A stretch of 64,000 nucleotides of DNA from Hydrolagus affinis. Lineage: Eukaryota. A program made the position numbers and the translations under genes. Shown here piece after piece: positions 14,281-62,382 of the stretch. Within the stretch, counting starts at the first letter, position 1. Every line of letters begins with the position of its first letter. The notes beneath the pieces were generated by a model. That model was not told the DNA's origin and searched no databases. It worked only from the letters and a program-made list of their open reading frames with translations. Where the stretch lies: the NCBI GenBank assembly GCA_012026655.1, contig JAAILG010000178.1, forward strand, positions 1 to 64,000. The letters are read 5' to 3'.

Positions 14281-15622
14281 AAAAGTAAATCTGGAACAGT
14301 TATAATATGTAACAGTGTTTTAAGACCATTGGGCCTGTGTCCTTGGATATGGAGAAAGTGGAAGCTATCGTTGTTTCCTGTGTGCACTCAACCACTATGA
14401 GATAGCAAGACTGTTTACGGACACAACTATTAATAAAATGGGATTTGATGGATCATGGTTCTTAGGACCTTATAACTAGATTTGGAGGTTGTCTGTTGGG
14501 TACTTGCACTTTATCTTCCAGCACAATATAAACTCCAGGAGGTTGCAGCTGTACTTCAAGAATATAAAGCTGTTGCAAGGATGGAATATTGCACGAACAA
14601 GCCAGACAGGTGCAACAACTTTTCTTCATTATGGGAATGCCGCTTAGGATGTCGTACATGCATCACTGACACTTCATCCATCATAGGGCGGCACTGTTTC
14701 TGATTACTGCTATCATCTCTGGCCAGTCCAGGCCTGGCTGTACAAGCACAGTTGAACATATTGTGATGGCAACATACCAACAGCTAGAGGTTATGGTTTG
14801 GCAATGAGCCAATTTGCTTGCATCATACAATAGAATAATTAGTGTGCCCACATTTAGTTAACAAGGAGACTGGAGACCAGCTGTTAGGTAGGCTCGGACT
14901 ACTCCAGCTGATGAAATTAATGGCAGAATGCAAAACAGCACCTTACTTAACAAGACATTTGTGGTTTGAGTTGCACAAAACTGATCTGCCATTGAGAAAT
15001 TGTACTGAAAGGTCTTATTTGTATCTTCAGAATGAAAGACTCAGCTAAAATACAACAGCCACACTTCTGTAAGTCATTTGAATGGGATTACTTTTATTAT
15101 GAGGAAAGGTTAGTCAAGCCATTTACAATCAACCTACTACAGTCTCACTGTGCGAACAAATGATAGGTGACATATAAATTGTACGCTTTCAATTTGAAAT
15201 GAAATAAAACGAAAAAAGGACCCATTTCATCAGCAGCCACTGAAATTCAATACTGCTTTTGCTGAGATCATCAAGATGTGATGTTGGTGGATGCAATAAT
15301 TATCAGGAAGAAACAAAGGAATTTGATTATCGGTATATTATAGAGATAAATCACAATGCCTGTTTTGAAATTATGTGTTGGAAGTTGTAAAAGAAAAGGT
15401 AGTTGATTCGTCAATGTGTAAGTAACAGCGATTTGAAATTACATTCATTTGTCGTTTCATTGTTATTAAAGGACCTTGGAGGATTTAAATGGAAAATTTG
15501 TGTTGTAAAGGCATTCCATTTTAGAGCAGAAATGCAACTGTAGCTCTCGCAAGATTTATGCTACAAAAACATTTCATGAAACATGTGTGCGCATCCTATG
15601 TGAGCGTAAGTCTGTGTCAGAT

Positions 15623-37330: not shown

Positions 37331-40300
37331 AAACAAATCATATCATTTTGTAAACTTAGTAGGGGGTTCCCTTGCTGTTTACAACACAGCTTGCATCTGC
37401 CCATCAGCAGTAAGTGCAAAGAGCAGTTAATTTTGAAGCACTGCTTTCTTATATATAAAAAATATTAATGGTTGTTGTCTTTTTTGTGAGCTACATTATC
37501 TCATTACAGTCTTTGCTATAAAAGCACTTCACCCCACTTCAAACACAGATTTTATAAAACCTTAAAATGGTTTTGCAATGTGCAATAATGACATGGTTGA
37601 GCATTTCAAATTGTGTTAAATTTCAGAATGTATTTTAAGGGGTGGAATTTCGCTTTAGGTGGATGATGAATGGCTCATACTTTATTTATGTTTCATAAAG
37701 CAAAAGCTAACAGTAGGAATAGAAATAGTACATCTTTGCAAGGTGTAAGCCAGTCCAACACATTTTCCTTCAAGCACATGCAGTTCCACAAAGTTTAAGA
37801 TAAGATGAAACTGCACATGTAATTAGTTATTTTCGTATGATCAAACAGCACTTTGTGTATAACACTTGTAAATGTTGTCTTGAAGATTAGAGTTAAAGTT
37901 GGAGATGCCATGAAACAGTTACTGCTTTAAAACTCACCAGTTGTTCAGTGGAACCTTTTGGCAGAAGTTCAGTTTAATATGTTTATATGATAAGTGGCAA
38001 GAGAGTCAAGGATACTTTACACTGATGTAAACAGATATCGAGCTCGTCAGTGTATTCGGGCTGAAAAGAATGTGCTATGAAGCAGCTTTAATGGATCTTC
38101 CTGCTTTGAAACAAGAATAAGGCAAGTGCTTTTTTATTTTTGGGGTCTGAGTTTATGAATTTACAAGTTTTCTATTCTAAGAGAAACACCTTTGGTTTGA
38201 CTGGATCTAGTCACTAATTGTTTTTAAAGCCATCCAGTGTTATTCAGGGGAAAAGTTTCCATTGTTTGTTCAACTTCAGTATTTGGTTCTTAATTGGCAG
38301 CCACCACATTTTATTTATACATTGGTCCTATCTAGGTTAGCGATAATGGATTGAAGTGAATATTCAAAACTAAATATTAATTGCGGTTGATCTAAAACGT
38401 TGCTCACCATTTATGGTTAATATTTTTGCATGTCTGGTTTTTAGTTGCTGCTCCCAGACTCCCAGCTCACTCGAGACCACCCGTTTGAAATGAACAGCAC
38501 TGTGTTTTGTCAGTGCTTCCCTTTTATTGATACCGTATCTAGACTTGCAATAGAGATCTAATATCTGCATTTTCAGAGGAATTGGAACAAGGGCGGAGAA
38601 GTGAGCAATATCCATAAAAGTGTATGAAATTGCCATGAACCACTATATTAAGTCTGCAATTACTTTGAGGGGAAACATGAGTGAATTAGTAGTGAAGAGC
38701 AGCTAAAGCTCTGAGGAGGAAACAGACTTTCGAGGATAAAGGGCTGAAGCGACAAATATTCCCAAAAGTTCCCTACAATGAAATCCAGTTCACAGTTTTC
38801 AGCAAAATATCAGAAATTGTATACACATGTACTAAAAATGTGCATATATAATGCATTTTTTTTTACAGAATTCAGTTAATGTATGAAAGCAATTATTCAA
38901 TATTTGGCATAAAGGGCCAGACACAATTGGTACAATAAAGACTGTGGACATAAATGAGCCCTTCATGACGGGAAGGAAAAATAATTACTTTTGCGATTGT
39001 TGAGGTCGATAAAATTATCAAACCATAGAAAAACTAGCTCATGCAATAACGGCATACACAACATGTTTTCTATGGGAAAGCTGAGCGAGAAGGCAGAAAA
39101 AAACATGAAGCTTGGGGAGAACTGTATGCTTGGCAAAGTTTTAGATAAACACTGCAGTAGAATGTATCTTATTTTGATTGTATAAACACCAATCATTTCT
39201 GTTGTATTGAGAACACATTTATTTTCTATCCAAACATGTGTACCAAAAATAGGAAGCTATGTGCAGGTTTCATTGATTGGAGGATGGAATGAGATGAGAA
39301 GAGATGATTTGCAAACTTATACCAGAATATGTTTGCATGAGATTTGGTCACAAAATAACAATTCAGATTTTTTCAATATATACTTGCAGTAGGGGTTATA
39401 TGCTTTGTTATATACTTGCAGCAGGGGTTTTCTGACTGATGTCTAGTACTGTATTCAAAAGATCTTCTACAGTTTCCAAGTGCACCTTGGACATCCCTCA
39501 AGTCCCAGATCTATTCATAAAAACGCATGGAAAATTTTCTGTAGTCAAACACGACTAAGTGATTTGCAAATTCCTCCATTTGGAAAAGGCAAAGTTGCAG
39601 GAATTGTAAGGTTTGTGGACCAATTTCTATAGCGCTCGAACCAGCAAATTGGAATTGCAGAACTGCGTCAGCAAATAGTTCTTGCAAATTAAACAAACCC
39701 TTATACTGCATTTTCTGTGGCAATACAAGTACAGGGTGAGCAAAAAGACATCAAAACAATTTAATGTCGAATAGTTTTTAAAGGAATTTTTTTTAGATAC
39801 AGTAATTAGTTTGATGAAAAAATCAAGACTTTTTGGTCACCCTGCATTGGGACATCTTCCCAACATGAAAGGCGCTATACAAATATAATTTTGTTGTTGT
39901 TGTTGTTGTTGTATTAAGCCCAAGCTAATCACACTATTCCCATGCTCTTGAGATCAGTATGAGGAACCGTTTGATTGTTGTTGTAGGATAACTGTAATAG
40001 GTGTAAACCAAGTCCTCAACAGTTCATCAAAGAATCTTGGATGGTTTGATGCACGACCTAGAATAATTCAGGGCCTTAAATACTACATTTAAGAGGTGAA
40101 TAGTCGTTGAAGATTACTCAGAAGTAGAAACATATTGTTTGAGTTCTTATTACTGTGGATGCCACTTTAGATTGTTTTCTTGGAAGAGTTTGAAATAGTA
40201 ACTATGTATTCAAAGTCAAATGATAAGAACAAAGAGTTTGTAATTTGTTCATGAAACAGAGAAAGAGCGACCTTTACAGCTTCTTTTAGCTGAACCTTTA

Positions 40301-43300
40301 ATGCTTATCTCAAGTGGCACAATGCCAATCTTTGGGATTCTGTTTCCTTACCAGCTGAGAGTATAATTCAATGACATTTTGGTTTTACAGAATCTCTGGC
40401 AACTGAACGCAGAGAAGGTTGGAATTCCACCAAAGTGTTTTCGAAACAAGCCTAATTTGCTGGAGATTATGAGAAGCTACCCACGCTCATGATGAACAAC
40501 AGGTAAGGAGAGGGATAGGGGGGTGGGGGGGAGGGGGGTGGGAGTATTGGCAGTCAAACTACCATCCTGTTTGTATAGAGCGGATATAGTACTTAATAAA
40601 GATGGGAATACATTTAAACTCCCTGCCTCTCTCTCTCTCTATGATCTTTTGTTGAACTTAGGTCAAACTATTTTTACTTTTGAATATTATTATTCAACTT
40701 GAGTGCTTATCTCAGGGTTTGTTGAATCACTGTGAACTACAGACTATTCCTGCACAATTCAGAGGGAACTTGTACATATCACAACACACAAAACATTACT
40801 TTTAGTTTTGCCAATTAAAAAAAACATTAAAAAATGTACGGCAACACATTTTGCTCCCTAATCGTGGCTGATGTGTTGATTTTAGTTGCATTTCCATCTC
40901 TGGGGAAAGTAAATTCCCTTTACATAAACGAACAAACAATTTGACAGAAGGATCTTAAAGTTCTGGGGTCTGTGGTAGGTTAGCAACACTACTTACTGGT
41001 TTTACAAATTGAAAACCAGAAGAAGCTAACAATACGCTGATTTGGTATGTTGAACCTTTGGTTAAACCCACTATTCAATCATACTTTCAGGGCTAAAAGA
41101 TTTTCCAAGAAACACTTTCAAACCATTGTAGCAGCGTCTGTTAATCCACTTTTGCAACCATCTCCCTGATTTTATAAGGTATAAATAAGCAGAGAAAACT
41201 TCTACTCTTTCGCAAAGTTGATGCTCATGTGTTTTCTGGTCCATGTCCAACCAACCCTTTAGTCTAAAATGTGTTGTACTTCAGTTTTATTTTCCTGGGA
41301 AAGGATTTGTGAGAGACAGTGGCCAACCAAAACACTTCACTATTCTAAAGTTTGCCTTTTAAAGAATAAGCAGCAACATTGATTCAAATTGTTCATCTTT
41401 ATTAGGCATTGATGCAGCCTGACTGAAGTTTATAATTGGCATTGACTTTTCACAAATACCTTTCATGTGGTCATGAATGTTTAGCGCACGAAGAGTTCAT
41501 GTGCAAACTATTTTAACCTTTTCATTGCCAAACACAGCTCTTTTGCACAACATCTTCAAACGTAACTTCTGTAATTTTTATAAGCAATGGTAAAATACAG
41601 TCAGTAGTCAGAAGGAAGGATGGAAATGCTTGGAAAGATAAGAGTCTGACATCAGTAAATGTGATGCTCATCTCAAACAATAATACAGTAGATTGCAAAT
41701 GCTACATATACAACCATTCTGGTAGTTCTTGTTTCAAAGTGATTTAATCTGCAAATAGATTGCCCTGAAACTTAGACTGTCCAGTGCCTTGGGATGTCCT
41801 CCCAACGTGAAAGGTGCGATACAAATCTAATGTTGTTGTTGTTTACCAAACGCTAGTTAATATAGAAAATATGGAAATATAAAATATATTTTTTTAAATA
41901 GAAAATTATAGAAAATAATTGTACATTCACACAGTTGTGCCCTAAAGAAGTTGTTTATTTAACATTTCAAATTATTTAACATTCATTGCAAAAACATTTT
42001 TTCCATTAGTGGCAATAAGGTGGATTTGTTTGGTGCATCAAGTATAATGCAGTAAACAAATGACTGATGGTACTTTCTGTAAGGCTGTTAATGTTGTGAG
42101 CGTGCATTGGAATTCAGTGTTGTACTATGCAAGTATGCAGGCAAAAATAAGAAAATGTTTGGGGCTGATTAGATTCATGCCTCAAAGGAAATTTGCCAGC
42201 ATGATTTCTGATGTGCCAATCCTATGAGGGCAAATGATTTGAGAAAGCCCAGCATCTGAGAAAGCAAAAAGATAAAGAGAATGAGAATCCAGGCAATTAC
42301 TGGACTGACTGAATCGGATGATTTCATATCATTATTTGTCATCCTGAATTAAACATTAGCTTCAGAGTAATAAATGTTGGTAACTGTGACTGTAATTCTG
42401 CCATGAGGACAAAATTAGAAATAATAGTTGAATACTTCCCACACTCCTTCACTTTTCTGTTTATATTACTGTATCTGCTTTTGAATAAAACCCATTTAAT
42501 CACTCCTGAATTGCTTACAAATACACAGTCACCACATTTGATAGTGAGTCCCTGTGTAGCAGATTTAAATGTTTAATGTTAAAGGCGCTATATCAAAGGC
42601 CAAGATTTTTTTCCCTCCCCCTAAATTGTTCAAGATTCAAGCCTTTCATTTACTTTACTTTGATTTCCTCCATTGCTGCTCAAACCAAGTCAAGTTTAAA
42701 ACATCGGAAGTCAAGGGATAAGATGTTAAAAGTGGACGGAAAGAGGGAAAAAGAAAATTGCCAGTTGAATGAGAAGGTGATTAAAGGTTTAACTCTTAAC
42801 CTCAAATTGGTTTTCACTTTTATATACTGTATTTACTTTCCTAATCGGCAAGCAATTCACAACAAAGAGCAATGTTTGTTTGCACTTATTTGTTCAATTT
42901 AGGTGAAAATGTGCAAAGTGTAAATGTGACATTTATGTTTATTTTGATAGTGGAAAGAATCACCTGGTAACTAAATTGTGCTACAAAATTGCCGAGATGA
43001 TATTCTGCGAGATCATGTTGAAAGTGTATGCAATACACTGTTTAAATAACTGAAGATCTCTCTCTATCAGCTAGCCAGTCATCACCAGTCAGCAGTCTGG
43101 CTTATTGGGGACATATGTTCAATATTGCAGTGACTTCACCACCCTGATACTTTAACCCCACTGAGAAGGATTCAATCTTTTATACAGTGCAATTGCTGTT
43201 GGCTGGACACCAAGTGTCAGGTGTAGGAAAGAATGCTCTGGTATTGTAAATAATTTACACAGTGATATCACATTAAATCCTACCGACTTTCCAGGGTAGA

Positions 43301-45699: not shown

Positions 45700-45811
45700 C
45701 AAATCTATTTATAGTTTTATCAAATTATCTTACTTTGCAGGCAATATAACACTCTGGAACACAGCAGAAAGGTACATCCGGTGTTTCATTCACCTCACAG
45801 CTCAGGAACAG
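45700..45811 (+). promoter_or_regulatory. Candidate promoter and non-coding first exon of the NRAC-like gene
   Basis: MEF2 consensus CTATTTATAG 45705-45714, two reverse-strand WGATAA sites (TTATCA 45717-45722, TTATCT 45725-45730), TATA-like AATATAA ~45743, and donor CAG|gtaagg at 45811. Confidence 0.4.
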
Positions 45812-45860
45812 GTAAGGAGATACTTGACAGCGCCTTGCCTTAGGATATTAAATGTTTATA

Positions 45861-46050
45861 TAATAATCCTTGCATTTGATATTGCGCTTTTCACATCTTA
45901 TCGACTTCCCAAAGCGCTTCACAGAATATACTGTAAAGTGAATTGACTGTATATTTGTGGGCGAATCGCGGCAACCAGTTGTGCACAGCAGTGTCCCACA
46001 AACAGTCATGGACTGAAATTACCAATTTTATTATTGTGGTTTTTTTTTTG
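45861..46050 (-). mobile_element. 5'-truncated SINE in the putative first intron of the NRAC-like gene
   Basis: taataatccttgcatttgatattgcgc...gcagtgtcccacaaacagtc matches the family. Confidence 0.85.
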
Positions 46051-46281
46051 GCTTGGATAAATACTGATAGAGATTGTGTATTGTGTGTAGAATGGACAAG
46101 GATCATGGACAGAATTGAAGTTCTCTGAGGCCTTCATCCTTTGAGAACAATGTTTCAGTGCAAGTTGGTGTTCTTATTGAATGCCGTTTTCTAGATTCTT
46201 ACTCTCTTATTTTCTTGTTGGATCAGACACTGTATGGCAGTGAACATTTAGACACTACAAAGACCTTTGAACATTTCACCG

Positions 46282-46317
46282 ATGCATACAGAGAAATCAA
46301 CAGAGCAAAGTAATCAG
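46282..46317 (+). CDS. Putative first coding segment of the NRAC-like gene (MHTEKSTEQSNQ), within exon ~46227-46317
   Basis: Pyrimidine-rich acceptor ttttcttgttggatcag| at 46226 and consensus donor CAG|gtaagt at 46317, phase 0. Start codon is uncertain (see finding). Confidence 0.45.
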
Positions 46318-47084
46318 GTAAGTTTCTTTGCATATTACTGGCCATAATGACAAGGCCTTAAGATTCATACTAAAATATGACTTGCACTTAAGACCAATAT
46401 TTTCAGAAATATTTCTGTATCAATGAACGATGAAAGGGTTTAAGCACTTTTGCTTATCCCTGGTAACAGAAATTGTTACAATATATTTTCTGTACACTTA
46501 TTGATTTTAAAACCCCCATCACAAATTGAGACAGTGAAACTGCTGCTCAGTTGACCATTGGCTCAATTATGTAATGGTGAGCCAGACACATTTTTCTTGG
46601 TGAATTTTTGTAACAAATATGTTTAGGCAACTCCAATTAACAATGTATAATAAAAAGTAACAATAGCGTTTTTGAGCATCTCACAGGATTTACAAGAATC
46701 TAGTCATTTCCAGCACATTTTACATTAACACACTTTTTTTGGCTACCTCTTTGTTTTTACGAATCCTATTCAGACTTATTCAAGGTTTAAAATTATACTG
46801 GGTGGTGCAGAAAGTGATACATCATTTCCAGGTGTAGGAGTGCGGATGGATGAATTAAGATGTCCTTTCCAAATGAAGTTCTAATCTATCGAACAATTCC
46901 AATGCAAGTACAGGCCACGCCATTGATGTGGTACAAATACTTTTACAAAAGACATTTGAATCGACAGGTTTAAAGAATGAATGAATTTTTAAATAAGCGG
47001 GGGCTGTTTTTTCAAAGTTGATCTATTTGATTTCAAACAACACAAACTCGTATGTGCATTTCAACCAAGATTCTCCAGACTATA

Positions 47085-47394
47085 GGGAGTCCTGCAGCTC
47101 AGTGGTGAGAGCACTCATATGCAAGAGACCTGGGTTCAATGCCAGGCAGGGTGAAACCTTGGGTGAGTTTTCTTACTCCACACACCAAATAATAATCCAT
47201 CAAAAAAAACACAATAATAAATTGGTTATTGCAATACATGACTGTTTGTGGGACACCACTGTGTGCAATTGGCTGCCGCATTTCACCCACATATATATAC
47301 ACGGGCAATTCACTTTACAGTATATTCTGTGAATCGCTTAGAGACGCCGAGAAGACGTGAAAAGTGTGATATGAAATGCAAGGATTATTATTAT
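47085..47394 (+). mobile_element. Near-full-length tRNA-derived SINE (dominant family of the window)
   Basis: Head GGGAGTCCTGCAGCTCAGTGGT (A box) ... GGGTTCAATGCC (B box). Body has a Deu-like ctgtttgtgggacac..tgtgcaattggctgccgc segment. Tail gcaaggattattattat. Confidence 0.85.
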
Positions 47395-47414
47395 ACAGCT
47401 GTACTCTATCTCAG

Positions 47415-47540
47415 GATTCTGCAGCTGATCAGCCACTGGAAGTTTCGAATAAGATTTTACCACAGTGGCTTGGAAATGATCCAGTTGCCAGAGTTCAGAA
47501 AACACATACGTTCTCTGCAGAAACGTGCAACACACAGGAG
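47415..47540 (+). CDS. Putative NRAC-like exon (DSAADQPLEVSNKILPQWLGNDPVARVQKTHTFSAETCNTQE)
   Basis: Acceptor ctgtactctatctcag|, donor GAG|gtactt, 126 nt, open, phase 0-0, frame-compatible with neighbouring exons. No recognisable homology. Confidence 0.5.
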
Positions 47541-48754
47541 GTACTTTTCAGCGATTTAAAACAAATATAAAACTCTACATGGATCAGTATCGCATAACGA
47601 CTACTGTATAAATGATTCTATAGTTATAAAGTTATTTCATATTTGTTGACTACTAAATAGGGATAGAATTGGACTAAATATCTCTAGAATGTAAGAACTT
47701 TCAAATTAGTCGAGTGAGGAGGTCACCAGAGCTTACGTTTATTCTTAATGGACAAATGTTATTTGAGCCTCTGTTCTGTCCAGTAATTTCCTCCTTGTTT
47801 TCTCTTCCCTGGTTTCTGTTTTCGTTCTATCTCATTGTGTTTTTTTTTACCTCTTTCCTGTTATGTTTCCACTCCAAGCATTAAATTATGCGCAGTGTGA
47901 ATGCTCTAGTAGATCTTTAATTGGGTGGAAAATTAGTTGTGAAAGCAATGTCATTTGTCTTTGCCTTTGTCAAATCCGAAGAAATAAATATGTATAATAC
48001 TCCATTTAACATATATATGAAACCACCATAGGATATCAGAAAACGTTTCATAATTCAATGCATCGAGAGGTCATAATTGCAAACAAATTGCACTGAGAGG
48101 AAGAGGCACCTCAGTGGCACTCGTCTACAAAGCAATAGATTCCACACTTAACCATTCGAGTTCACTTGCCCAGGCACCACTGGACCTTAGAGTCAAATTT
48201 GCTCATTCATGACCTTTCCCCCCCACCGTCCACCTCCCATCCCCCTTTCTCTGCAATAGACACAATTACTATCACATCAGAGATTGGCCCGGGCACATCT
48301 GCCATTATAGCCTTTGATCTGCCATCTTTTAGCGTTTCATTTGTCCCCATAGCGCCCTCAGTTTACAGCTAATGGTAATCACTTTCAAATGAAATTCAAC
48401 TACAACCTTCAAGATGACTGAAGGGATCAGAAAGACAGCAGAAAGGTAAAGGATCAGTTGAGATAACGAAACTAAAGCCAGACGAGAGTAGGTAGAAAAT
48501 ACAGTAGCATTCAATAAAAGTGAAATTATAAAATTATACAGAAAATAAAGAGAAAAGTGATGTATCGTTTTTTTTAAAAAAAATATAAGCATCTTGAGGG
48601 GGGGGGAAATAAAATCAGGATCAAGTTGTTTCAATTGGAACATCAAAATCCCAAATTGTTTGCTTGAAACCTTATGGATACAGTTTGCTTAAACATAAAA
48701 CTGTCTAAACTAGACATGGAGATGCTGAAATACATGGCTGTATAAAAGAGATAG

Positions 48755-48975
48755 TTGATTGGCAGATCGCTTTTCCCAGTGGTAATAATTCCTTTTTAAA
48801 AAAATTGGTCACGTCAATACACACTGTTTGTGGGACATTGCTGTGCGCAATTGGCTGCCACGTTTCACTCATCATAAAATATACAGTCAATTCACTTGAC
48901 AGTATTCTGTGAAGCGCTTTGAGATGCCTCGAAGGCGTGATAAGGCAATATATCAAATGCAAGGATTATTATTAT
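48755..48975 (+). mobile_element. 5'-truncated SINE abutting the 49001 acceptor
   Basis: ctgtttgtgggacattgctgtgcgcaattggctgcc...tcaaatgcaaggattattattat. Confidence 0.85.
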
Positions 48976-49000
48976 TTGTTTATCTGGTTTTGAAACCCAG

Positions 49001-49142
49001 CAGGCAATTGGACTAAAATGGCCAATCTCTATTCTGAGGACAAGGTCGAGCGGAACATTGTATGAAGGGAACTGTACATCTCTCAAGAGGAGATCACAAA
49101 GGAGGGTTCATTTTCGAGAATCAGATGAGATAATTTTGCCCA
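49001..49142 (+). CDS. C14orf180: C14orf180/NRAC-like internal exon (QAIGLKWPISILRTRSSGTLYEGNCTSLKRRSQRRVHFRESDEIILP)
   Basis: Acceptor gttttgaaacccag| (tandem CAGCAG), strong donor A|gtaagt, open frame, phase 0-1. KWPISILR...RRVHFRE resembles recalled human NRAC KCPPSILK...RRVWFRE. Position convergent with TMEM179 fits human 14q32.33 order. Confidence 0.8.
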
Positions 49143-49724
49143 GTAAGTTTTGATACTTTATTACATCATTGATACATTTGGTTAGAGGGTTTGGATTAAA
49201 ATATAACAAAAATCTGAATTTATTCCAGTTGAAGAATGTAGCTGTTATAATAAATTCGTCTTCATGATGTGCCCAGTGAGTTGATTTCTAAACAAAGTAT
49301 TATTCTAAACTCATACAAACCAGTAGTCAAGTGTAACAAGTGTTACTATCTTTCAACATGTTTTTTTTTAAGCTGCATGCATTTGCATCGGTAGAATCTT
49401 CCCATTGCAGTATTTTTAAATCCCTATTGAAAACCTGATCACATTAGCTGTTCATCTTTTAGACAATACCTGCTTGACTATTAAACTGGTCTGTTTCAAG
49501 CGCTTCGAGACGCAGTCTGGCATGAAGGGTGCTTTATAAATGCAAGTTGTTGTTGTTGTTCTCCTTGCTGTTGTATTCTCAATGCTAAAGAGATAGCACC
49601 ACGAATCTTGAAAATTTCAAGATCTCATTGCCAGGATTAAGGGGCATGTTTGTCCTGTGTGTTGGTTGGTGGAACAATGGGATCCAGTAAGCAAAAATAA
49701 TAGCAAGAAAAGATTGCTTACACA

Positions 49725-49950
49725 AGTCAATCAGCGGATTGCTTTTCTGGGGGTAATAATTCCTATTGCAAAAAAAGTCACTCAATCCACGACTGTTTGG
49801 GCGACACTGCTATGCACAATTGGCTGCCATGTTTTGCCCACAAAATATGCAGTCAGTTCATTTTACAGTATATTCTGTGAAGAGCTTTGAGAAATCTTGA
49901 AGATGCCATAAGGCTCCATATTAAATGCAAGGATTATTATTATTATCATC
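49725..49950 (+). mobile_element. 5'-truncated SINE
   Basis: ctgtttgggcgacactgctatgcacaattggctgcc...aaatgcaaggattattattatc. Confidence 0.85.
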
Positions 49951-52104
49951 ATCATCATTCACAGCCCCTGTAGAGGGGGTGTGGGCAATATCTTAACACA
50001 AAGGATAACATTCTGTAACCCGATCAAACTAAATGCTGTAGTGTCTGTGGATGTAAAGAAAAATCTCAGGGAATATAGCTCTTTATGCTTATTCACAAGA
50101 AGGAATCGCTTCATAGCGCTAATCTTAGTTTGATTATACTACACGAAAAATTCTAAATGGTGCAGAATTACAGTCCATTAAATAAATTAAATTCTTTCAA
50201 ATGAAATGGAGAGGAAAGAAGTTCCATCGTAATTACAGTCTTCAGAAACATCCTTCAGTGAGTGGCTTCACTGGTTTAGAAGTTGATTTTCATTTGAAAC
50301 AGCATCCTAGTATGGTAATCCCAAACCAATTTGCTCCAAAATTGTTACAAGGTGGCGAGAAATTTCACCACATTAGGTAGATTGTGAAATATGGGGTCAG
50401 AATATACAATCACTAAACAATGGTAAAAAAAAACAACTAATTCATAAGAAATCACCTACAAATGTTGTACAGAAATAGCTAAGTAAATAACTAAAGGGCA
50501 GTTCAAGGGAGGAAAAAAATCATTTGGGATGTTTCAGTCAACTGTTCATTGCAATCATTTGTGCTATGAGAATGTTAAGACTCATTTCAAGTCCCCAGCT
50601 GTGTTAGTGCCCATCTCAGGCCTCTTTTCAATCTAATTTTTCACACTCCCCTGGTGTGAGCCCAAGCCAGGGTAAGTGGAAACCTATCCAAACACTCATT
50701 TCTCAACCTTGCTTCCAAGGTATTGAATCGGCCGAATTCTAACTTCTTGTTGCACATGAAAGTAATGAGAATATAGATTTGTTTTGAATTCTAATAAAAA
50801 TTCTAATGGCACAACAGACAAAGGGTGAGCATTTCTGAAGTGAAGGAAGGGTGGGAGGGGAAAGATGGGTGATGTGTAGTCTGGGAAAATGATACTCAAA
50901 TGTTAGAATAAAGAAACATTTCTGTTGTGAGATAACATTTAGAGGGATATAGTATTTGGATTATTGATTTTAATTTAGTATTTACTGTTCCACGGGGGAA
51001 ATTTCTACAAATTAATCTATTTCTTGATCCCAAGGGGAGCATAATTCTTACCTCGTCATTTTATTTTCCCATTATTTCTCTCGCTCTCTCTCTCTTGAAA
51101 GGCTTTCTGATGCAGGCCCCTGATACATTAATCTATCTGCCTGGTCAACTCAATACCATTCAGCAGTTATTTTTGTGTCTGTAACTGTGTCCGTGACTCC
51201 ACAATACTTAAAAAAAAACCTCACTATTATTATGGGAGCCAGTCCAGATGGCCCGCAGCTAACATCAGAGCCAATAATCACAGCAAACTCAACAGTGTCT
51301 GCACAGTGTCATTATGCATGCAAAACAAACTGCTGAACAGCGCACTTAATTTTCTCTCTGCTCCCCAGAATTGCTCTGATAGCTGCATTTTGCTGGACTA
51401 CATTTCCTTTTTTGGTTCCAGCTGAATTATATTTATGTACTGGTGCATTTTAAACCAGCTCAATGCTTCTTACAAAGATTTTTTTGTTCATCTTCGCACT
51501 CAATTCCTCATTGCTGCAGTTAGGCGAAATGTAGCACTACATCAGTTTAAAAATGATTTGGAAACACCAGCCTGTCATTCAGTAGGGCCAGCTCAAGCCA
51601 AAATTGTAATTAAACCAGTTTACAAAATGCAGTATCTTTTTCAGCACATTGATTAATCTACATTTGTTTTGCATTTTTCTCCAGTAGCTGCTAAAAACAC
51701 GGCCATTAAACATTTTCTGCAGGATTTACAGTCAAATGACGGCAAGGTAGTGCTTACAATTTGTCCATTTAAAATATCAATTTGGAAATTCACTCTCGAA
51801 TTCAGCAAGAATTAGTGCAGTGCAATCCAATATAACACCTTTCACACAAGAAGGGTATTTCAAATTGCCTGACAAGTCCTGAATTTGGGGTGTGAGCCAG
51901 TGGCGGTTGTGGTGGGGAGGTTGGATGGTGGGGGGGGCTTTAAAAGCACAGTCAAACAGGTATGTTTTGAGACCTTGAATGGTGGGTGGGGGGAGAGAGG
52001 CCATTTAAGATCATCAAACCTATTCATCAGAGTGATAAAGAGCTCCCAAAAATGAATAATTCTCGCATTTGACCCCTAAAAGCATGTTAAAAAAAAGGTG
52101 CAAA

Positions 52105-52340
52105 TGTAGTGATTGTGTATCTATAGGCAAATAAGGCAGCCAATTTGAACACAGCAATGCCCCACTTAAGTGACAAAGTGAGTGATCAATTTAATCTGGG
52201 GTTGGTTGGTCAGGTTAGCAGGAAGAATACTTTATTTCAATAATTCTATGGGACCATTAATGTCCACAGGCCAACAGGCCAACAGAACTTCATTTTGTCT
52301 CACCCCCAGCACAACACTGGAGAATTAGCCTGGGCTATGT
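52105..52340 (-). mobile_element. Degenerate DeuSINE fragment
   Basis: ggcagccaatttgaacacagcaatgcccc...ctatgggacc...tgtccac...cactggagaattagcctgg. Confidence 0.55.
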
Positions 52341-52959
52341 AAAGGAAAGATTAACAAGCCCTTCATTGATTACAGCATTTCATTTGGAGTTCTTTAGCTT
52401 TTTATTCCCATTCCCCAACTTTCTCTTCACATAATGCTCTGCTTGGCCTGGAGAAGGCACTAGCTCAGTTACTGACCTGTGATTCCACACTTCCAGGGTC
52501 TGCTTTCCTTGCCAGTCCTCACTTCTGACACCATGATACCACTTTGTTTCTTACATTGTTTTTAAGGCTCCCAAGTCCACTCGTCCAAATCAAATGTAGT
52601 GAATCTGTTTGAAACTCCAGCTCATGAGTAGTCAAGGTATAGCCAGCAAATCTTCCAAATTTCCCTGCAGTCCACTCCAAACTGGTTCACCTCAATAGAA
52701 ATAGTGACTCTATTAAGGGATGATCTACAAATTCCCCAATTTATAAGGCTTGCAAAATCACCAGGGGGTTATCCCCAAATCTTTAAAGGACATTTCTCCA
52801 TAAAGAGTGGAGAGTAAGGATTGACACCTATTCACCTCAGATCATTATCCCTAGAAGGTTGGTTAGACAGTGACAAGAGTCATTGGATTGCGGTACAATG
52901 GTCTTTAGTTTCTATGGGTTAATATGAAACACCCTCTGAAATGGCCTAACAAGCTACTC

Positions 52960-53205
52960 TCGAGAGAAGATGACTAGGATGAAAATCTCATAGATGGGTA
53001 CAAGCTTTTAAATGAGATTGAAAAAGTAAAACCAGATCAATACTTTAGGATGTATCAAGACAGTAGAATAAAGGGACATGGGTTTCAAATTGTAAAGGGT
53101 AATCTCAACACAGCCAGAATTTGTCTTACACACAGGGTAATCAACATCTACATGGTTGTCAAGAATGATGGTAGAGGCCAGGACACTGGACTCATTGATA
53201 CATTC
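52960..53205 (+). mobile_element. CR1-clade LINE fragment
   Basis: Degenerate gagaagatgactagg..atctcatagatgggtacaag...KGHGFQIVKG...FxTHRVINI motifs. A weaker similar fragment lies at ~33230-33500. Confidence 0.65.
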
Positions 53206-54068
53206 TTATATTCTATTTTATACTTTTTTTAAAAAAAAGGGCAGGAAGATTATTTCTAAAACAAAACGAAAACACAGCTTCCTTCACCGAATGGCAGGAG
53301 AGATTTCGAACAAGCATGGACAGAGTAGAACTAGACTCTAGTGGTAATGTAAGGTAAAGGTAGTTCTGTTTAGGACATCCTTTGACATTAAACAACAAAT
53401 ATATTGCATCCCATAAGTGTTGCTTAAAAGGAGCTGTACTAAATACTTAATTCGGACTGCTGCATTGAACAGATGCTGTGAAAATGATTATAATATATCT
53501 TTCAAATTCCAATCCTGGATGAATCACTCTGAAAAGCAGGATAATTCATCACATTGCTGCCCTATTCCAGACAGCTCAGCATTTTTGTATTGAGACTACA
53601 CGTAGCAGGGATATATATGTGCATATAATGTGCAATTTTTAAGTTTTTGAATCCAATTTAACTTTTAATTAGTTGCTGAGTACTTTGCAATAGTTTGGTC
53701 ACAATGCATTCGAGGGAGAGGGAGAAGGGCAACTGAGAGAAGAGTCTCCAGTGGCCAGCTTAGCCTGAAACAAGGAAGGAAAAGCTAATTCACAAAAGAT
53801 GGCCATTCAATTGAAGTCTTGACCAAACAATCAATCTGCTTGTGCAGTCAAGAAAGAAGGCTAGCATGGTTCCACAAACAGTTTAGAATATGTTTTATCA
53901 GTTGTGCATTTTTATTTAATTTTGAAGAAGACCGCGGTATTTTATAGACTTCTTTCATATGGCAAGAGCGCTGATTAGCAACGCTCAAATAACCAAGTCC
54001 AGATTAGTGAGTAATATTAATATTTAGAATGTAATTTAATTTTTTGTCACATTGTTGTATTTTTTCAG

Positions 54069-54268
54069 CTCATGAACACTATTCCCCAGCACCATCACCA
54101 TTGCAGCTTTTTGCGTTCATTGTTTTGCTGAGCCTGCTGATTGTGTTACTCTATTGCAATAAGTGTCCCTCTAAGGTCTGTGAACAACTTGGGTCGAAAC
54201 TTCTTAGCTTCTATCTGGACATCAAGCACATTGCAATCAGATGCTGGCACCGATGGATGAAAAAGTAA
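54069..54268 (+). CDS. C14orf180: C14orf180/NRAC-like terminal exon with TM helix (HEHYSPAPSPLQLFAFIVLLSLLIVLLYCNKCPSKVCEQLGSKLLSFYLDIKHIAIRCWHRWMKK*)
   Basis: Acceptor ttgttgtattttttcag| in phase 1, compatible with the 49142 donor (A|CT = Thr). Hydrophobic stretch plus LYC and ..LL....L.H.A..CW pattern as in recalled human NRAC C-terminus. TAA ends at 54268. Confidence 0.8.
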
Positions 54269-54459
54269 GACATCCGCAAACACTGGGAGCATCAAAACAC
54301 AGCTTGGTTTGGACACTCCCTTTCAGCGGAGCAATCTTGGCTGAATGATGTTACAAAGGCAAGCTGTTCAACATCACTTAGCCACAGTCGGTGGTGGTTA
54401 GAAACAATTGGTTGAACACAAGACAAAATGACAATGAACCTTCTGAATTTGCTGTCATG

Positions 54460-54925
54460 ACCCCATCTCCCACATTCCCACCCAACTCCATTGGCTCCCA
54501 TCACCCAGAGCATTCAATTCAAGATCCTGGTCCTCAATTTCAAAGTCCTCCTCGGCCTCGCCCCACCCTTCCTTTGCGACCTCCTAACCTGCCTGCCCCC
54601 TCCGCTCAACAGGCTCTGGCCTGCTGCACTTCCCCCAAACCACCCACCCCACCACTGGCAGGCAAGCCTTCAGCCACTCTGCCCCCAACCTCTGGAACTC
54701 CATTCTCCGGTCCCGATGCCTCACCCCTTCCCTGGCCTCCTTCAAGTGCCGCCTCAAGCCCCTCCTCTTCGACGGTCCCATCGGTCACACCAAATCCCCC
54801 CCCTTTCCTTCCACCCTCTTCGTCCCCGACCCCAACTGGGGTTTGAAACAGTGACTGTCCAGCGCCTTGGGACGTCCTCCTGATGTAAAAGGTGCTGTAC
54901 AAGTGTCATTTTGTTGTTGTTGTTG
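54460..54925 (+). mobile_element. L2-clade LINE 3' fragment
   Basis: Frameshifted ORF2 C-terminal motif LHWLP-ITQSIQFKILVLNFKVLLGLAPPFLCDLL, then a 3' tail cagcgccttgggacgtcctcc..aaaaggtgct..(GTT)n. Confidence 0.85.
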
Positions 54926-56447
54926 GTTCAATTTTCCTCTGCAATGTTTTTGAAACCTCGGACTTCATTCTGTTTTTATTTTAAGATGGCATTGTCAACA
55001 AAATGTTTATTTCAAATATTGTGAAATTTAGCTACTGGCTCAACTGAAGATCCACTAACAGTGAAGGTTGCAATCCAACTCCCATCTCTTGGGAGTCACC
55101 AACATCAGAACCTAATCAATCCAATTGTTGGAAATGTTTACCTGAATGAAGATGTATTATTGCCCTACACAAAGCATGGTACCTTCCATTCCCAGATCCT
55201 ATTTAATTCGACCCCTCCCACGCTTTACACAATATCTTTGTCCCAATGCCTTGGATAATCAGTTAATTACTGGTCCATTGCCTAAGGAGTATGGAAACAC
55301 TGCAAATACTACAATGTGAATCAGACATGCATGGATAGCCTGATTAGAATCAATTGGTTTTAGAAATAGTTTTTGATTCCTATTTTACTCTGGTCAGCAG
55401 GGCATCAGACACAAGCATAAGGGACATCATCACCATTATTAAGGTATCCAAATCAGACAAGAGTTCCACAAATGTATCCCACTTACACACGGAGATTTCC
55501 CTGTGTCTGGAATGGGCACTCTTTCCCTTCAGGGATGCCCTGCTTACCTAATTCCAGAGAGTATTAGGTGTCGGGTGGCAAGAATCAAGGCCTGTGGTGC
55601 GGCTGGAGATAACTAGCTACGACTGTGCTGCTTGCCATTGAAAACATTGTCGGCACGTTTCCTGCTGCATGTCCATCCATTAGAGCTTTAGCTTGCAGGG
55701 TAAACATACACTAAACGAAGAAAGTTTGCCTCCAGAAATTCCCATGTTACGGCACAAATCGTCTCTCAGTGTGACATCGATTTATAATCTACACATGTTA
55801 GGATTCACAGCTGACTTGAGACATTTTCTTGGAGACCATTGTGAATCGTGTGATCTGTGATGAGTAGCTGCACTGCAGTAAGATATTCTTGAAGCAAGCC
55901 AACTCTGAAAAAAGTGTACATGAATCTGACAGCAGTATTTCCACCAGCCTGTTTGACTGTAACATTTCTGGAAGCCACATGCTGTCTGCCTAGGAGTATT
56001 GTAATGCTATGTTAATGCTATTTGATCTATGCCCCTTATGTCCTGGTTTAAGGTAGATGTTAGTATAATCAGTAAAAAAAACTGAATTCGTTGAAAATAT
56101 GGGATTCAGTTTTGTACTATCGACCTCAGTAGATTAGTTTTCTCACCGGATAATTGTTTTATGGAAGACTTTCTTTGCTGAAGTTGATGGGTTCAAAGAG
56201 AATATAGATTACAGGCAGTAATTGTTGAATGGCAGGTATGGGATTGAATGCAATAAAAAGGCCAAATTAATTGTAAATCCAACATTCCTGCAATTTCCCC
56301 ACACTAGTGGTCTTTCACAGTATTAACTGTTATATTAATGGCAGAATTCTTGATGACGCTTAACACCTAAATTGATAAAATTCTGCAGTTAAGAAGCAAT
56401 CTAGTGTAACCTTTCCATTAATCTACTGTCGCATTTCAGCTACTTGT

Positions 56448-56740
56448 GGAGTTCTGTAACTCAGTGGTTAGAGCACTTACCTCGCAAGTGGGAGACCTGA
56501 ATTTGATTCCCAGCAAGTTTCCTTATTTCACATGCCTCTGTTCACCTAGCAGTAAGTAGGAACCCAGTGGTAATAATTCTTTCAAAAAATAATAAATTGA
56601 TCACTGTTTGTGCGACACTGCTATGTGCAATTGCCTGCTGAATTTTTCCCCAAAAAGTCAATTTACTTTACAGTATATTATGTGAAACGCTTTGAAACGT
56701 CTTGAAGATGCGATAACTCACTAAATAGGATTATTATTAT
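56448..56740 (+). mobile_element. Near-full-length tRNA-derived SINE
   Basis: A box aactcagtggtt, B-box-like atttgattccc, central gcctctgttcacctagcagtaagtagg, Deu-like 3' segment, (TTA)n tail. Confidence 0.85.
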
Positions 56741-58590
56741 TCCTTGGCAACCATGTACATTTTAAAATATTGTTGCTGGTTATATTTTTTCTGATACTTT
56801 TTAGAACAATGCATAATTTATCTAGTTAGTTTATTTTTCATATTTTATCAGAATGTGTTTCAATTTAGTATTAGTTGCAAGAGTGCCCCCAAAGTATCAT
56901 GGAATAGAAATAATTTTGTTACCATTTCAGAACTTGCTTACAATGTGGAGAGAAGGAAAAATAATTGTAAATGGCATAAATCTGAAATAAAAACAGAAAC
57001 ATTTTGGAAATCCATAACATCTGTTGAGAGTGATGGGTTTAAAGTTCCATTAATTCAGAATGATTGTGCAATAAGAATTAGGATCTTTCAAATGCACTGC
57101 CTTTTGAATTATATCTGGATGAATGCATCCTTTGCAGCACAGTTTTGCTGTGTGTAAATTGCCTTACTGCACTACTGACTCTATAAGAAGTCCTGTAAAC
57201 TGCTTTGTTGTCGTAATAATTGCAATACCAAATTGCAAGGATTATTATTTTCTATTGATGAAAAATGACAGCGCAGGTAGGACAAAAGTGGTAATGGCTC
57301 TCAAAATTCAACACTTGAAGATCAGAAAGTTAAAATTTCCCTTTGCAGGATGAAGAGTGAAGAGGAGGGAATCTTTTCAATGTTTTACTTTCTAGGAAGT
57401 TTTATAGCTGGTGTTAAGCCTCCGTTGGACAAATTTGTGATCTTTCCCCATACTTTGTAGGCACCAAGATGACAAAAAGGTTAAGGGACAGCAAAAGTAA
57501 TTTTCTATACTTCCATTCTTTTCCTAGTTTCTAAACCATGTTGCTGCAGTTATTGAAGCATTGAGTAACGTAAATCTGAAAGTGCTTATTTGATCCGAAT
57601 GACAAAAAAAGTGCCCAAGCAAATGTAAACAAGCGTTTGAGTGAATTTAATTGAATACTTTTTCAGGAAATACACAGGACACAGTACAATCAAGGTTAAA
57701 GAATTGACATTAATAATAAAGATACTTTTTTTTATGAGCAGCATATGGCACAGTAAAAGGCTGTCGCTGTCTACTACTAAGCTTCAATTGCCGCCGTTCA
57801 CTTTATTAGCCTGAAGTGAGCCAGTGATTTAAGGTGGAACATTCAGTAGTGCAAAGGAGCAGCTGCTTCTAAGGCCATCATAACCACAATTTTCTAAGCA
57901 GTGCAGATGAGATTTCCAAGACTGAAAGCAATGTATTCAGCAGTCTTTGAAACATGTTCAGCTCTATCCAAAATCATAGCTCCGAGCATCTTGGCCCTAA
58001 TGTGCTGAGCACGAACAGAAGTATTCAGCAGCACCAGCCACAAGCTACAATAACTGACACAATTTGTTCATTTGATTTCAGCACAATTCATGGTAGCAGT
58101 GATAATGAATGACATGCTGAATAATGCAGTGTGACAAATTCGGAAAGTGCCTTAAATATTTCAAGACATTTCTAAGATCGGGGTGCATGGAATTAATTAT
58201 TTAGTTTGATACTGTAAAACAGGATAAATTGTTCCGACTTATGGCGCTAAGCCTTTGACGTCTAAAGCAGAGTCGCACAAAGAAAGTTTACATTGAGCCA
58301 AGGCGTTACAGCAACCTTCAGTTTGGGAGGTTTTGTGGCAAGACACTTTAGAAAATGACTACATTCGCAGGTTAACAAAACTTAGGCACTGAAAGAATAG
58401 CATTCATAGTTGTAGAGATTCTTAAGACACCCAACGTATATTGAGTGGGAGGCAAATCCTGAAGAGCAACTCTCCTGTTTTACAGTACCTTTGCATTGAT
58501 TCCTCTTTGACAAGCAATGCAGAATCACCCTCTCCTGTTGCGGCTGTTTGAAACATCCTTTCTTCATCATTTTCCGTGTTATAACCCGAT

Positions 58591-58806
<216 letters not shown>

Positions 58807-59583
58807 TTAAAAGCAAACTTTGACAACAACAACTTGCATTTCTATAGGGCAAAGGGCGGGAGGGGTAATCTGACCGAATGTGCAGCTAAAAACAAGATAA
58901 ACCTTGTTTTGTTTATAGAAGTAAATAATTTGAATGCAGCCTGGATATTGATTGTTAATGTCAAATTCTGCAAACTCAACAGGGGCAAAAGCATAGAATG
59001 AAACTACTCAATTGCTTTATTTTAGACAATCCACTCATTTGTTTTTCACAGTCAAAACAACAAAAAAGAGGAAATCTACCATTGTCACAGTTAATATATT
59101 TGGTTTATCAAAAACATTGTCTACATAAGAAACTTTTATACAACACCATTTTTTTAAAAGAAAAACTGTCCAAGAATATAATATTTGTGAATTTTCTATC
59201 ACTATACATGGTCGTCTAAACTGAGTGCTCATTGAATGAAGCAATATTTGATTTACAAGCAGCATATTTCTGACAGTGAATCCATTTACAATGATCCTTT
59301 ATTGGGAAGAGTTTCGAGAGACATTGTGCTAATGGCATTTCAATAATTTATCATTGGATTCAATGATAATTGGATTGAACATTTGAATTCCATGGCAAAA
59401 AAAGCTCCGGTAAATGTGCAATGGGCAGGAAGTTATGTCAGTGACAACCTACTGACCTGGAAGTCAAACACAGGAAATCAACCAGTTTTCAAAGTCGATG
59501 CACAAACAGCTGTCAATAGGGCCCTATTATAATGCAGATTACAATTTCTTGGACCTCAAAGGGTTCTACTGTAGTTAGAAAAC

Positions 59584-59930
59584 ATAATAATAATATTTCT
59601 TTCATTTGATATAGTGTCTTATCATGTGTTCGAGATGTCTCAAAAGTGCTTCATTAAGATATAGGATAAAGTGAATTGACTGTCTATTTTGTGGGCAAAA
59701 CGCGACAGCTAATTGTCTACAAGCAGTCATGAATTGAATGACCAATTTTCTTGGAAGAAATTATTACCCCCGAAAAAGCGAACCGCCAATCGACTGACAA
59801 CCAGGTTCCTACTTACTACTAGGTAAACAGAGGCATCTGGAGTAAGAAAACTTGACCTACATTTCACCCTGCCGGGAATCAAACCCAGGTCCCTTGTTTA
59901 TCTCCCGCAAGATAAGTGCTCCAGCCACTC
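59584..59930 (-). mobile_element. Near-full-length tRNA-derived SINE in TMEM179 intron 3
   Basis: Reverse complement of the same family: (TAA)n tail on the left, cctacttactactaggtaaacagaggca centre, gggaatcaaacccagg B box. Confidence 0.85.
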
Positions 59931-60215
59931 CAAAAACTTCGATTTATATAGTGCCCTCCATGCTGGACAGCGTCTCAGAGCGCTTCACTAAGCTACAGGA
60001 CTCCACAATATAGGGTGATAACCAACACAACAACAAACAAAATTATAGAGGGCCTTTCATGTCGGGAGGATGTCCTAAGGTGCTGAAACACCATGTGCAA
60101 TCTAAATTATTCTGTCTAACCAATTCGGTCAGCTGATGCGCTTTGAGACATTCTTCCAATGTCAAACAGCACTTTTATACACTTCACTATATCTTTACTA
60201 TATATCCTGTTGTCA

Positions 60216-60930
<715 letters not shown>

Positions 60931-61010
60931 TTATTCTTCTCACTTTTATTTACTCCTGTAGCACTTTTCATGTGTTAGGTGCTTGGATTTGCCGTTGATA
61001 AGTTTTTCTA

Positions 61011-61301
<291 letters not shown>

Positions 61302-61514
61302 TCAGAGATACAGCTCAGTCTGCATAGGACTGGAGCCAGTGAGCATTCTCCGCCCACACACAGCAGAGGGAGAGAGAGACGCAATAAAGCCCTGAGGAAC
61401 ATTACACTGTCCGTCCATGGCTTTATTTACAAAAGCAACGCCAACACTGACTGACTGTGATCACAAAACTCAGACCTTTCCTATGGGTGGGATTTGATTT
61501 TAACCCTCCATCTC

Positions 61515-61800
61515 TTGTGCAATCGGCTGCCGCGTTTCGCCCGCAAAATAAGACAGCCAATTAATTCCCTTTGCGGGGTGTTCCGCGAAGCGCTTTGAGA
61601 CGTCTAGACGACGCGAAGAGCGCTATAATACTACTCCTGTTAATAATAATAATCCTTACGTTTGATGTGGCGCTTTTTCACGTCTTCTAGACGTCTCAAA
61701 GCGCTTCACGGATCGCGCCGCACAGAGAATCGAACGTAAATTTCCGGGTGAAACGCGGCAGCCCATCCATCGCGCACGGCCGCGGATTGAAATGAACACG
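61515..61800. mobile_element. Inverted tail-to-tail pair of CpG-rich SINE 3' fragments in TMEM179 intron 1
   Basis: Perfect 22-bp inverted repeat 61587-61608 / 61686-61707 and 14-bp inverted repeat 61525-61538 / 61750-61763. Confidence 0.85.
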
Positions 61801-62080
61801 TGTATTATTCCCCCAACAAACAACAACAACAACCCTCGCCTTTGACACAGCGGTGTGACAATCCAAAATGCAAGGAATCCTCCTGATTATTGCCAGCACC
61901 ACCACCACCAATCACAACAGGAAACAACAACAAGATGGACATCAGCTTGCATTGACAAAGCAGCGTCCTCCCCCCACCCCCACCTCCCCATCCCATCTCC
62001 TCACCACCCCCTCCCCACACCCCACCCACCCCTCTCTCTCCTCTCCGTGGCTGGCTGGGTGGGTGGCCTTGACTACCTAC

Positions 62081-62382
62081 TCGTCGTGACCTTTGCAGAG
62101 GTAGAAGAGGAGCCTCCAGGCCTGGATGGCCGACAGGACCAGGGCCAAGAGGACGACGAAACTGGTGAAGCCGCAGGAGGAGGTGGGTCCCCACTCCTCC
62201 ACCACGAAGCGTTGCCTCTCTATCGTGGCGTTCACGTCCTGCCACATGCCGCGGGTGAAGAGCGGGCATCTCCCCTGGAACTGCCGACCGTTCTCCCACA
62301 GCGGCACCACCACCACCAAACCAGACAGGAAAGCCAGGAAATACAGCAGGCACTGGACCCACACCACATTGTTCAGCCCCAT
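62081..62382 (-). CDS. TMEM179: TMEM179 coding exon 1 (MGLNNVVWVQCLLYFLAFL...WRLLFYLCKGHD)
   Basis: ATG at 62382 in a strong Kozak context (accaccATGG). Translation resembles human TMEM179 N-terminus (MALNNFLFAQC..VVVVPLSENG..GRCLLFTEGMW..EWGP..LCKGH). Donor GA|gtaggt, 302 nt, phase 2. Confidence 0.95.

Follow-up and report, generated by a model that had tools for sequence, protein, structure and literature searches.

The forward strand at positions 46227–54268 of a 64,000-nucleotide (nt) stretch of Hydrolagus affinis DNA (assembly GCA_012026655.1, contig JAAILG010000178.1, positions 1 to 64,000; hereafter the window) raises the question of which short membrane protein is encoded there and from what kind of gene it descends. 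The original prediction placed here a hidden four-exon gene for a tail-anchored protein of about 167 residues, orthologous to NRAC/C14orf180. We find that the orthology stands but that the prediction missed fossil exons further upstream, kinship with consortin, and docking motifs for protein phosphatase 1 (PP1). The gene is probably an NRAC orthologue that arose as a consortin paralogue and was shortened by breakage of its Consortin_N exons, leaving a single-pass membrane adaptor of ~170 residues that would dock PP1 beside a partner membrane protein. The intact part of the gene comprises the following features.

47415..47540, forward strand: coding exon for a polar cytosolic linker, identical to each of five shark proteins at 18–22 of 42 residues
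49001..49142, forward strand: coding exon with a SILK-type and an RVxF motif, RNA-covered at 49027, best Pfam match DUF4658
54069..54268, forward strand: last coding exon, with the membrane helix at 54101–54157, then an amphipathic helix (from hydropathy and hydrophobic moment) and the stop; DUF4658 and phmmer matches
54269..56257, forward strand: likely 3' untranslated region to the first AATAAA (56252), its end presumed from that signal; one-strand RNA in bins 53940–54376 and 55688–56124

Together with a first stretch at 46282–46317, these three exons carry GT donors and AG acceptors, and splicing them together gives 504 nt, equivalent to 167 residues and a stop, so the frame-compatible chain that had been proposed is borne out. 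On a simple weight matrix the donors of the four stretches fall at the 94th–100th percentile of all window sites and the acceptors at the 83rd–97th, and the 156 stop-free codons of exons 2–4 have a chance probability of about 1.5e-4 in the window. A tandem CAG-CAG acceptor at 49001/49004 is matched by isoform pairs differing by one Gln in all four shark pairs compared. For the direct join of 49142 to 54069 no intervening micro-exon is needed, because sharks have the same spacing across that junction to within one residue; a simple splice-score scan of the interval gave no micro-exon candidates. The spliced protein has a single hydrophobic helix at residues 113–131 (mean Kyte-Doolittle 2.74), and beyond residue 135 the maximum 19-residue hydropathy is 0.71 with a hydrophobic moment of 1.27. 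One transmembrane helix is therefore right, whereas "tail-anchored" is a loose description of a protein in which 36 residues come after the helix.

Scanned exon by exon, the exons at 49001 and 54069 each have DUF4658 (PF15555) as their best Pfam match (E 0.018 and 0.0024; 15.7 and 18.5 bits), each alone below the cut-off of 27 and covering separate parts of the profile (10–45 and 71–123); exon 47415 has no Pfam match. A phmmer search of 1.84 billion proteins with the last exon returned four matches, comprising two named NRAC homologues, an unnamed protein of Mustelus asterias that belongs to this family, and a fourth (P0004, E 1e-3) that was rejected as a repetitive chance match. The best of these, labelled "Prist...", which we read as the sawshark Pristiophorus, retrieved the NRAC homologues of Heptranchias, Heterodontus and Scyliorhinus when used as a query. 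Exons 2–4 match a shark NRAC homologue in order (tblastn against the window, E 3.8e-9, 2.9e-9 and 5.9e-11), and the window coding exons are 43–57% identical to the shark proteins per exon where the exon is present. With DUF4658 as the best match of two exons and three of the four phmmer matches in the NRAC family, the orthology claim is supported. Further searches with exon 4 gave none of 33 candidates among longer proteins (word-indexed search) and no usable match in the ESM Atlas, and a PDB sequence search gave no matches.

Records named "NRAC homolog" exist in RefSeq and UniRef for sharks of at least four genera (XP_067847809-13 from Heptranchias, XP_067894249 from Heterodontus, XP_072351206-11 from Scyliorhinus torazame, UniRef UPI00398F48CC from "Prist...", and XP_078089319 from Mustelus), so chondrichthyan NRAC was already annotated. 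The proposed dating of the gene to the jawed-vertebrate ancestor holds; its newness does not, given these records. Mammalian NRAC orthologues, plus matches in tilapia and a lizard, have been reported (PMC3459823). In an eight-row tree made without rays and basal bony fishes, the window sequence sits on a long branch (0.93 versus 0.02–0.18 for sharks), joins no supported group and reaches a best identity of 49%, and is accordingly not close to any sampled shark. That the DNA comes from a cartilaginous fish, as first proposed, is likely, and a chimaera is our guess.

In mammals, NRAC is a membrane protein of fat and heart cells. Human NRAC (Q8N912, 160 residues) and the window protein are about equal in length and share a short polar cytosolic part with SILK and RVxF motifs, a membrane helix ending in Tyr-Cys, a final helix and, if the neighbour in the window is indeed TMEM179, a position beside that gene. 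Mouse NRAC has been described as a two-pass protein (PMC3459823, PMC12436663), whereas the last helix of the window protein is amphipathic and too weakly hydrophobic to span a membrane; the second transmembrane helix annotated in mouse is absent here. As described in PMC12436663, that helix is a prediction in mouse too, and its deletion left CD36 binding unaffected.

The front of the gene departs from the original prediction, which took 46282–46317 as a homologous N-terminus. The true exon is longer and its homologous frame is a different one.

46227..46317, forward strand: exon H; ancestral frame ends at TAA 46311–46313; ATG 46282 opens a shifted 12-codon frame; RNA-covered

Read from 46227, exon H is identical at 9 of 28 residues to the shark exon preceding the counterpart of 47415 (z 5.4–6.3 in all four sharks, with 0 of 2000 shuffles scoring as well in each), as against 1–2 of 28 and z below 1 for the ATG 46282 frame. 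To judge from these alignments, the 12-residue start from ATG 46282 is a frameshifted reading of an old exon and has no homology of its own. Exon H is 91 nt long, 26 nt shorter than the shark exon (39 codons). A DNA run (X1) of a relative ~97.5% alike spans 46021–47112 with 2 gap letters, so the shortfall is shared and is no assembly error.

Upstream of exon H, the gene reaches at least 8 kb beyond the interval originally predicted, into exons that are broken or uncertain.

38035..38121, forward strand: fossil exon E, second half of Consortin_N; offsetting -1/+1 frameshifts, TAA at 38118–38120, GC donor
40391..40502, forward strand: fossil exon F; in-frame TAA at 40453–40455, followed by ATGs at 40489 and 40492
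45741..45771, forward strand: candidate exon G, 31 nt, open, of fitting length, phase and position; weak sequence match

The frameshift-aware score of exon E is 50 and 61 against two shark exons, where the best shuffled scores are 29–39, and two frames each match a part of the shark exon. Exon F matches shark proteins at tblastn E 1e-4 to 5e-3 and in a profile match at E 1e-5, and its donor is at the 99.9th percentile. Candidate exon G ranks second by similarity among 15 AG-31nt-GT candidates; its acceptor is at the 96th percentile and its donors at the 94th and 99.9th, the stronger one, at 45811, making an exon of 71 nt. For exons A–D of the long form, scores in 1–47400 did not rise clearly over those of shuffled controls, and 14528–14578 was rejected as an earlier fossil exon (score 40–45 versus shuffled 36–43).

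Taking sharks as the ancestral state, there are 3–6 lesions in the 97 upstream codons and none in the 156 downstream (P 8e-3 to 6e-5 at equal decay rate), a contrast suggesting that the gene is shortened yet alive. The top-ranked donors of exons F and H are what would be expected if both were still spliced as a leader, and the broken upstream exons are presumably now mostly 5' leader. Human NRAC differs from the window in this respect, the fossil consortin-like exons being still readable in the fish.

Shark homologues share with the window gene the order and phases of the exons, the tandem acceptor and a SILK-to-RVxF spacing of 24–25, and differ in that two genera retain a form of 390–502 residues with intact Consortin_N, where the window exons have stops. 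These long forms match Consortin_N above cut-off (E 1.2e-20 and 3e-22); the window holds a broken exon of the domain only. Consortin_C is matched below its cut-off of 30 by nine of nine NRAC homologues scanned (17.8–29.8 bits, E 6e-7 to 3e-3) over the same residues as DUF4658. As both Consortin_N and, at this lower level, Consortin_C match shark NRAC forms, NRAC and consortin are homologous at both ends, and on these domain matches NRAC is a consortin paralogue rather than a member of the consortin family. The three best ESM Atlas clusters for a shark form are consortins (0.82–0.84, to be taken as a lead only), and a search for consortins through the Consortin_N region gave only the four shark NRAC forms among 18 candidates. 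Consortin (CNST; PF22883, PF15281) itself has 650–830 residues and, like NRAC, a membrane helix near the C-terminus, whereas in the window product the N domain and most of that length are missing. It is described as placing membrane proteins at the surface and as acting at the trans-Golgi through GGA adaptors (PMC9157791). Two proteins in the set (P0006 and P0008) have weak TPR and SNAP matches at about residues 150–260 (E 2e-4 to 3e-3), which overlap and precede Consortin_N and are a hint that the domain since lost folded into TPR-like helices.

Loss of the front half probably happened more than once, on the basis of gene models, because one of these exons carries a frameshift of its own in the catshark models. 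The N-termini of four of them (P0010, P0015, P0018 and P0019; residues 3–17) align with a frame-shifted reading of window exon F, with 0 of 500 shuffles as good, before returning to the ancestral frame; this suggests either a frameshift particular to catsharks or a gene model with the wrong start, and the lesion differs from the stop in exon F of the window. The Mustelus model has 128 residues, and Heterodontus has a partial Consortin_N. The Heterodontus protein XP_067894249 (P0009) departs from the other long shark forms at residues 60–140, inside the Consortin_N region; these exons may have decayed there for a third time, or the model may be faulty.

Expression was followed in three single-cell RNA runs (X2–X4) from one sample of a near relative, of each of which 27–30% was read. 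RNA and DNA reads were aligned at 85% likeness, and repeat reads swamped the tables of junctions, gaps and loose ends. One-strand depth in the three runs was 7/1/7 at 46281, 3/0/2 at 46315 and 15/0/7 at 49027, and at most 3 at all 37 intron positions listed (40 of 1133 rows). In bin 46074–46510, depth is 6.8/1.2/7.0 if all of it is placed on the 91-nt exon H, an exact fit to the exon. Bin 53940–54376 has a depth of 10.1/2.6/2.7 on the gene strand and 0 on the other, and bins 57436–58300 have 5–49 on the opposite strand, the pattern that two convergent 3' ends would give.

The last three exons have no methionine before residue 165, so the start must lie upstream of them. One candidate is ATG 46282, which needs exon H; the other is ATG 40489/40492 at the end of exon F, giving 170/169 residues if exon H is skipped. 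Exon F has a methionine at its end in four of five shark genera, and in Mustelus this is the annotated start. The RNA shows exon H to be used and therefore favours ATG 46282, which may be reached by re-initiation or from an internal promoter. We lean toward translation from ATG 46282 with exon H included; use of both starts is a lesser possibility, and translation from ATG 40489/40492 with exon H skipped seems unlikely. A five-codon upstream frame at 46234–46251 lies in the same phase as ATG 46282 and has G at +4.

What the protein would do is suggested by its motifs. A SILK-type motif lies at 49028–49039 and an RVxF motif at 49100–49114. With the consensus forms [GS]IL[RK] and [KR][KR][VI]x[FW] given in PMC11728760, [GS]IL[RK] and [KR][KR]Vx[FW] are both present in the window protein and in seven of seven homologues, so in all eight aligned proteins, at 20–25 residues from one another, and they supply eight of the 12 invariant cytosolic columns. 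In human NRAC the motifs are S46-I47-L48-K49 and R67-R68-V69-W70-F71 (coordinate/simulation file of PMC12436663). Consortin is likewise listed as a high-confidence PP1 interactor (log fold change 3.96, adjusted P 4.4e-4; PMC11728760 Table S1). Mouse NRAC, with its N-terminus intracellular, is described as binding CD36 via its first membrane helix and restraining the clathrin-mediated uptake of CD36 (PMC12436663). From the conserved motifs, their presence in human, the PP1 interaction of consortin and the binding of CD36 by mouse NRAC, we propose that the protein likely anchors PP1 beside a membrane client. Its presumably disordered cytosolic part would bind PP1 through SILK and RVxF, its membrane helix would bind the client (CD36 in mouse), and PP1 would set the phosphorylation of that client and thus its surface residence or endocytosis. 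The AlphaFold model of a shark form has a predicted local distance difference test score under 50 over residues 180–332, the whole model being poor (mean 40.9). PP1 regulatory subunits of the RVxF/SILK type, such as Inhibitor-2, RRP1B, Rif1 and KNL1, have the same two docking motifs, which in NRAC lie in a putatively disordered stretch; NRAC differs in being membrane-anchored, and the likeness is one of motifs, with no sequence homology claimed.

Several observations weigh against this interpretation of the locus. The window's own exons match neither Consortin_C nor Consortin_N in Pfam, so that the link runs through the shark proteins, and the split between consortin and NRAC is drawn from domain matches rather than from a tree. 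One assembly is the source for the stops of exons E and F. Use of the exons rests on depth rather than junction reads, the depth is low and the RNA is a relative's, with no reads at 49027 in one of the three runs. The context of ATG 46282 is weak, with C at both -3 and +4 and further ATGs upstream, and the alternative start gives only 43 residues (31-nt exon G) or 33 (71-nt exon G) if exon H is included. At least one such motif occurs in 120 of the 159 proteins of the PP1 list (PMC11728760), and chance matches are frequent. Finally, the main text on the mouse pull-down names CD36, caveolin-1 and cavin-1 among 13 partners and never PP1 (PMC12436663).

The same gene and history could also yield a protein that works only through its membrane helix, as a scaffold of the CD36/caveolin type, with motifs inherited from consortin and no meaningful recruitment of PP1. 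This would accord with the finding that mouse NRAC needs its first membrane helix both to bind CD36 and to block the uptake of fatty acids (PMC12436663 section 10), and PP1 goes unnamed in the text of that paper. The mouse constructs described all retain the cytosolic domain, however, so the paper gives no test of it. In the comparison of sharks, this fish, a distant NRAC homologue and human, moreover, no cytosolic residues are as invariant as those of the two motifs, in a linker that otherwise diverges. We consider a purely scaffolding role unlikely, though it deserves more weight than the idea that the whole locus is a decaying transcribed pseudogene whose front exons died first, leaving no usable start that reaches the last three exons. 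Such decay would explain the lesions in three upstream exons, the weak context and overlapping upstream frames of ATG 46282 and the long terminal branch (0.93). It is made quite improbable by the lack of any lesion in the 156 downstream codons (P at most 8e-3) and by the intact motifs, membrane helix, phases and tandem acceptor. Among the differences listed in the ~97.5%-identical relative, one falls in exons 47415–47540 and 49001–49142 and is synonymous, and short forms are also found in catsharks, Mustelus and mammals.

The naming of the family raises a further doubt, in that automatic naming could have mislabelled the long shark proteins and the window locus, which would then be a second consortin, or a chimera of consortin and NRAC, rather than true NRAC orthologues. 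DUF4658 and Consortin_C are only a few bits apart in sharks (22.8–28.7 versus 17.8–26.3), and the Atlas neighbours are consortins. The window exons nevertheless prefer DUF4658, and the locus adjoins a TMEM179-like gene just as human C14ORF180 (chr14:105046056-105056183; PMC3459823) adjoins the interval holding TMEM179, which starts at 105059814 (PMC6764480). We regard mislabelling as very improbable.

If the locus is indeed a consortin-derived NRAC gene that targets PP1, a wider history can be tentatively sketched, which is possible without being our firm expectation. NRAC would be a consortin duplicate from the early vertebrate genome doublings, an origin to which paired neighbours on human 14q32 and 1q44 would point. 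The jawed-vertebrate ancestor would have made a long form and an internally started short form, and the long form would have been lost separately in this fish, in catsharks/houndsharks and in the mammal lineage, leaving in each case the minimal SILK-RVxF-helix module as a so far unrecognised membrane-anchored PP1 targeting subunit. By delivering PP1, human NRAC would then govern the endocytosis of CD36 and the uptake of fat. C14orf180 may already appear with PP1 subunits in large two-hybrid screens; if so, the mechanism would gain support but be less new. Our literature search, which left most subscription journals outside its reach, found no publication tying NRAC/C14orf180 to RVxF, PPP1CA or consortin, consortin (CNST) to PP1 and RVxF, or C1orf71 to PP1. 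What is new here is the fossil record of the truncation, the consortin paralogy and the predicted PP1 docking, the gene and its age being already in the databases. The locus records the shrinkage of a long consortin-like protein to the NRAC form, with dead exons still readable. For human NRAC, which is little understood and has been linked to fat distribution (PMC12436663), it also offers a candidate mechanism; the cytosolic domain has no assigned function in the NRAC literature examined, and its best-conserved residues from shark to human are the two PP1-docking motifs.

Downstream, the gene converges on a transcribed neighbour of 232 residues, a putative TMEM179.

58591..62382, reverse strand: convergent neighbour, four exons (62382–62081, 61209–61072, 60348–60270 and 58770–58591), four hydrophobic segments

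Its four exon frames match no meaningful Pfam family. The two convergent 3' ends lie within about 1.5 kb of each other, with AATAAA at 56252 on the forward strand and 57802 on the reverse, and there is little RNA depth between 56999 and 57435. In 1–38000, 172 of the 180 stop-free frames of at least 55 residues were scanned with Pfam, none reaching a curated cut-off and no upstream neighbour being identified; the region probably lies between genes or consists of ancient intron.

A very abundant short interspersed repeat with a GGATT(ATT)n tail occurs in at least six copies in 40–60 kb, and no Rfam family matched, this repeat included.

45860–46028, 47100–47394, 48750–48976, 49725–49946, 56450–56740 and 59577–59900: interspersed repeat copies

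No more than about 25 nt separates the ends of two of these copies from the 47415 and 49001 acceptors.

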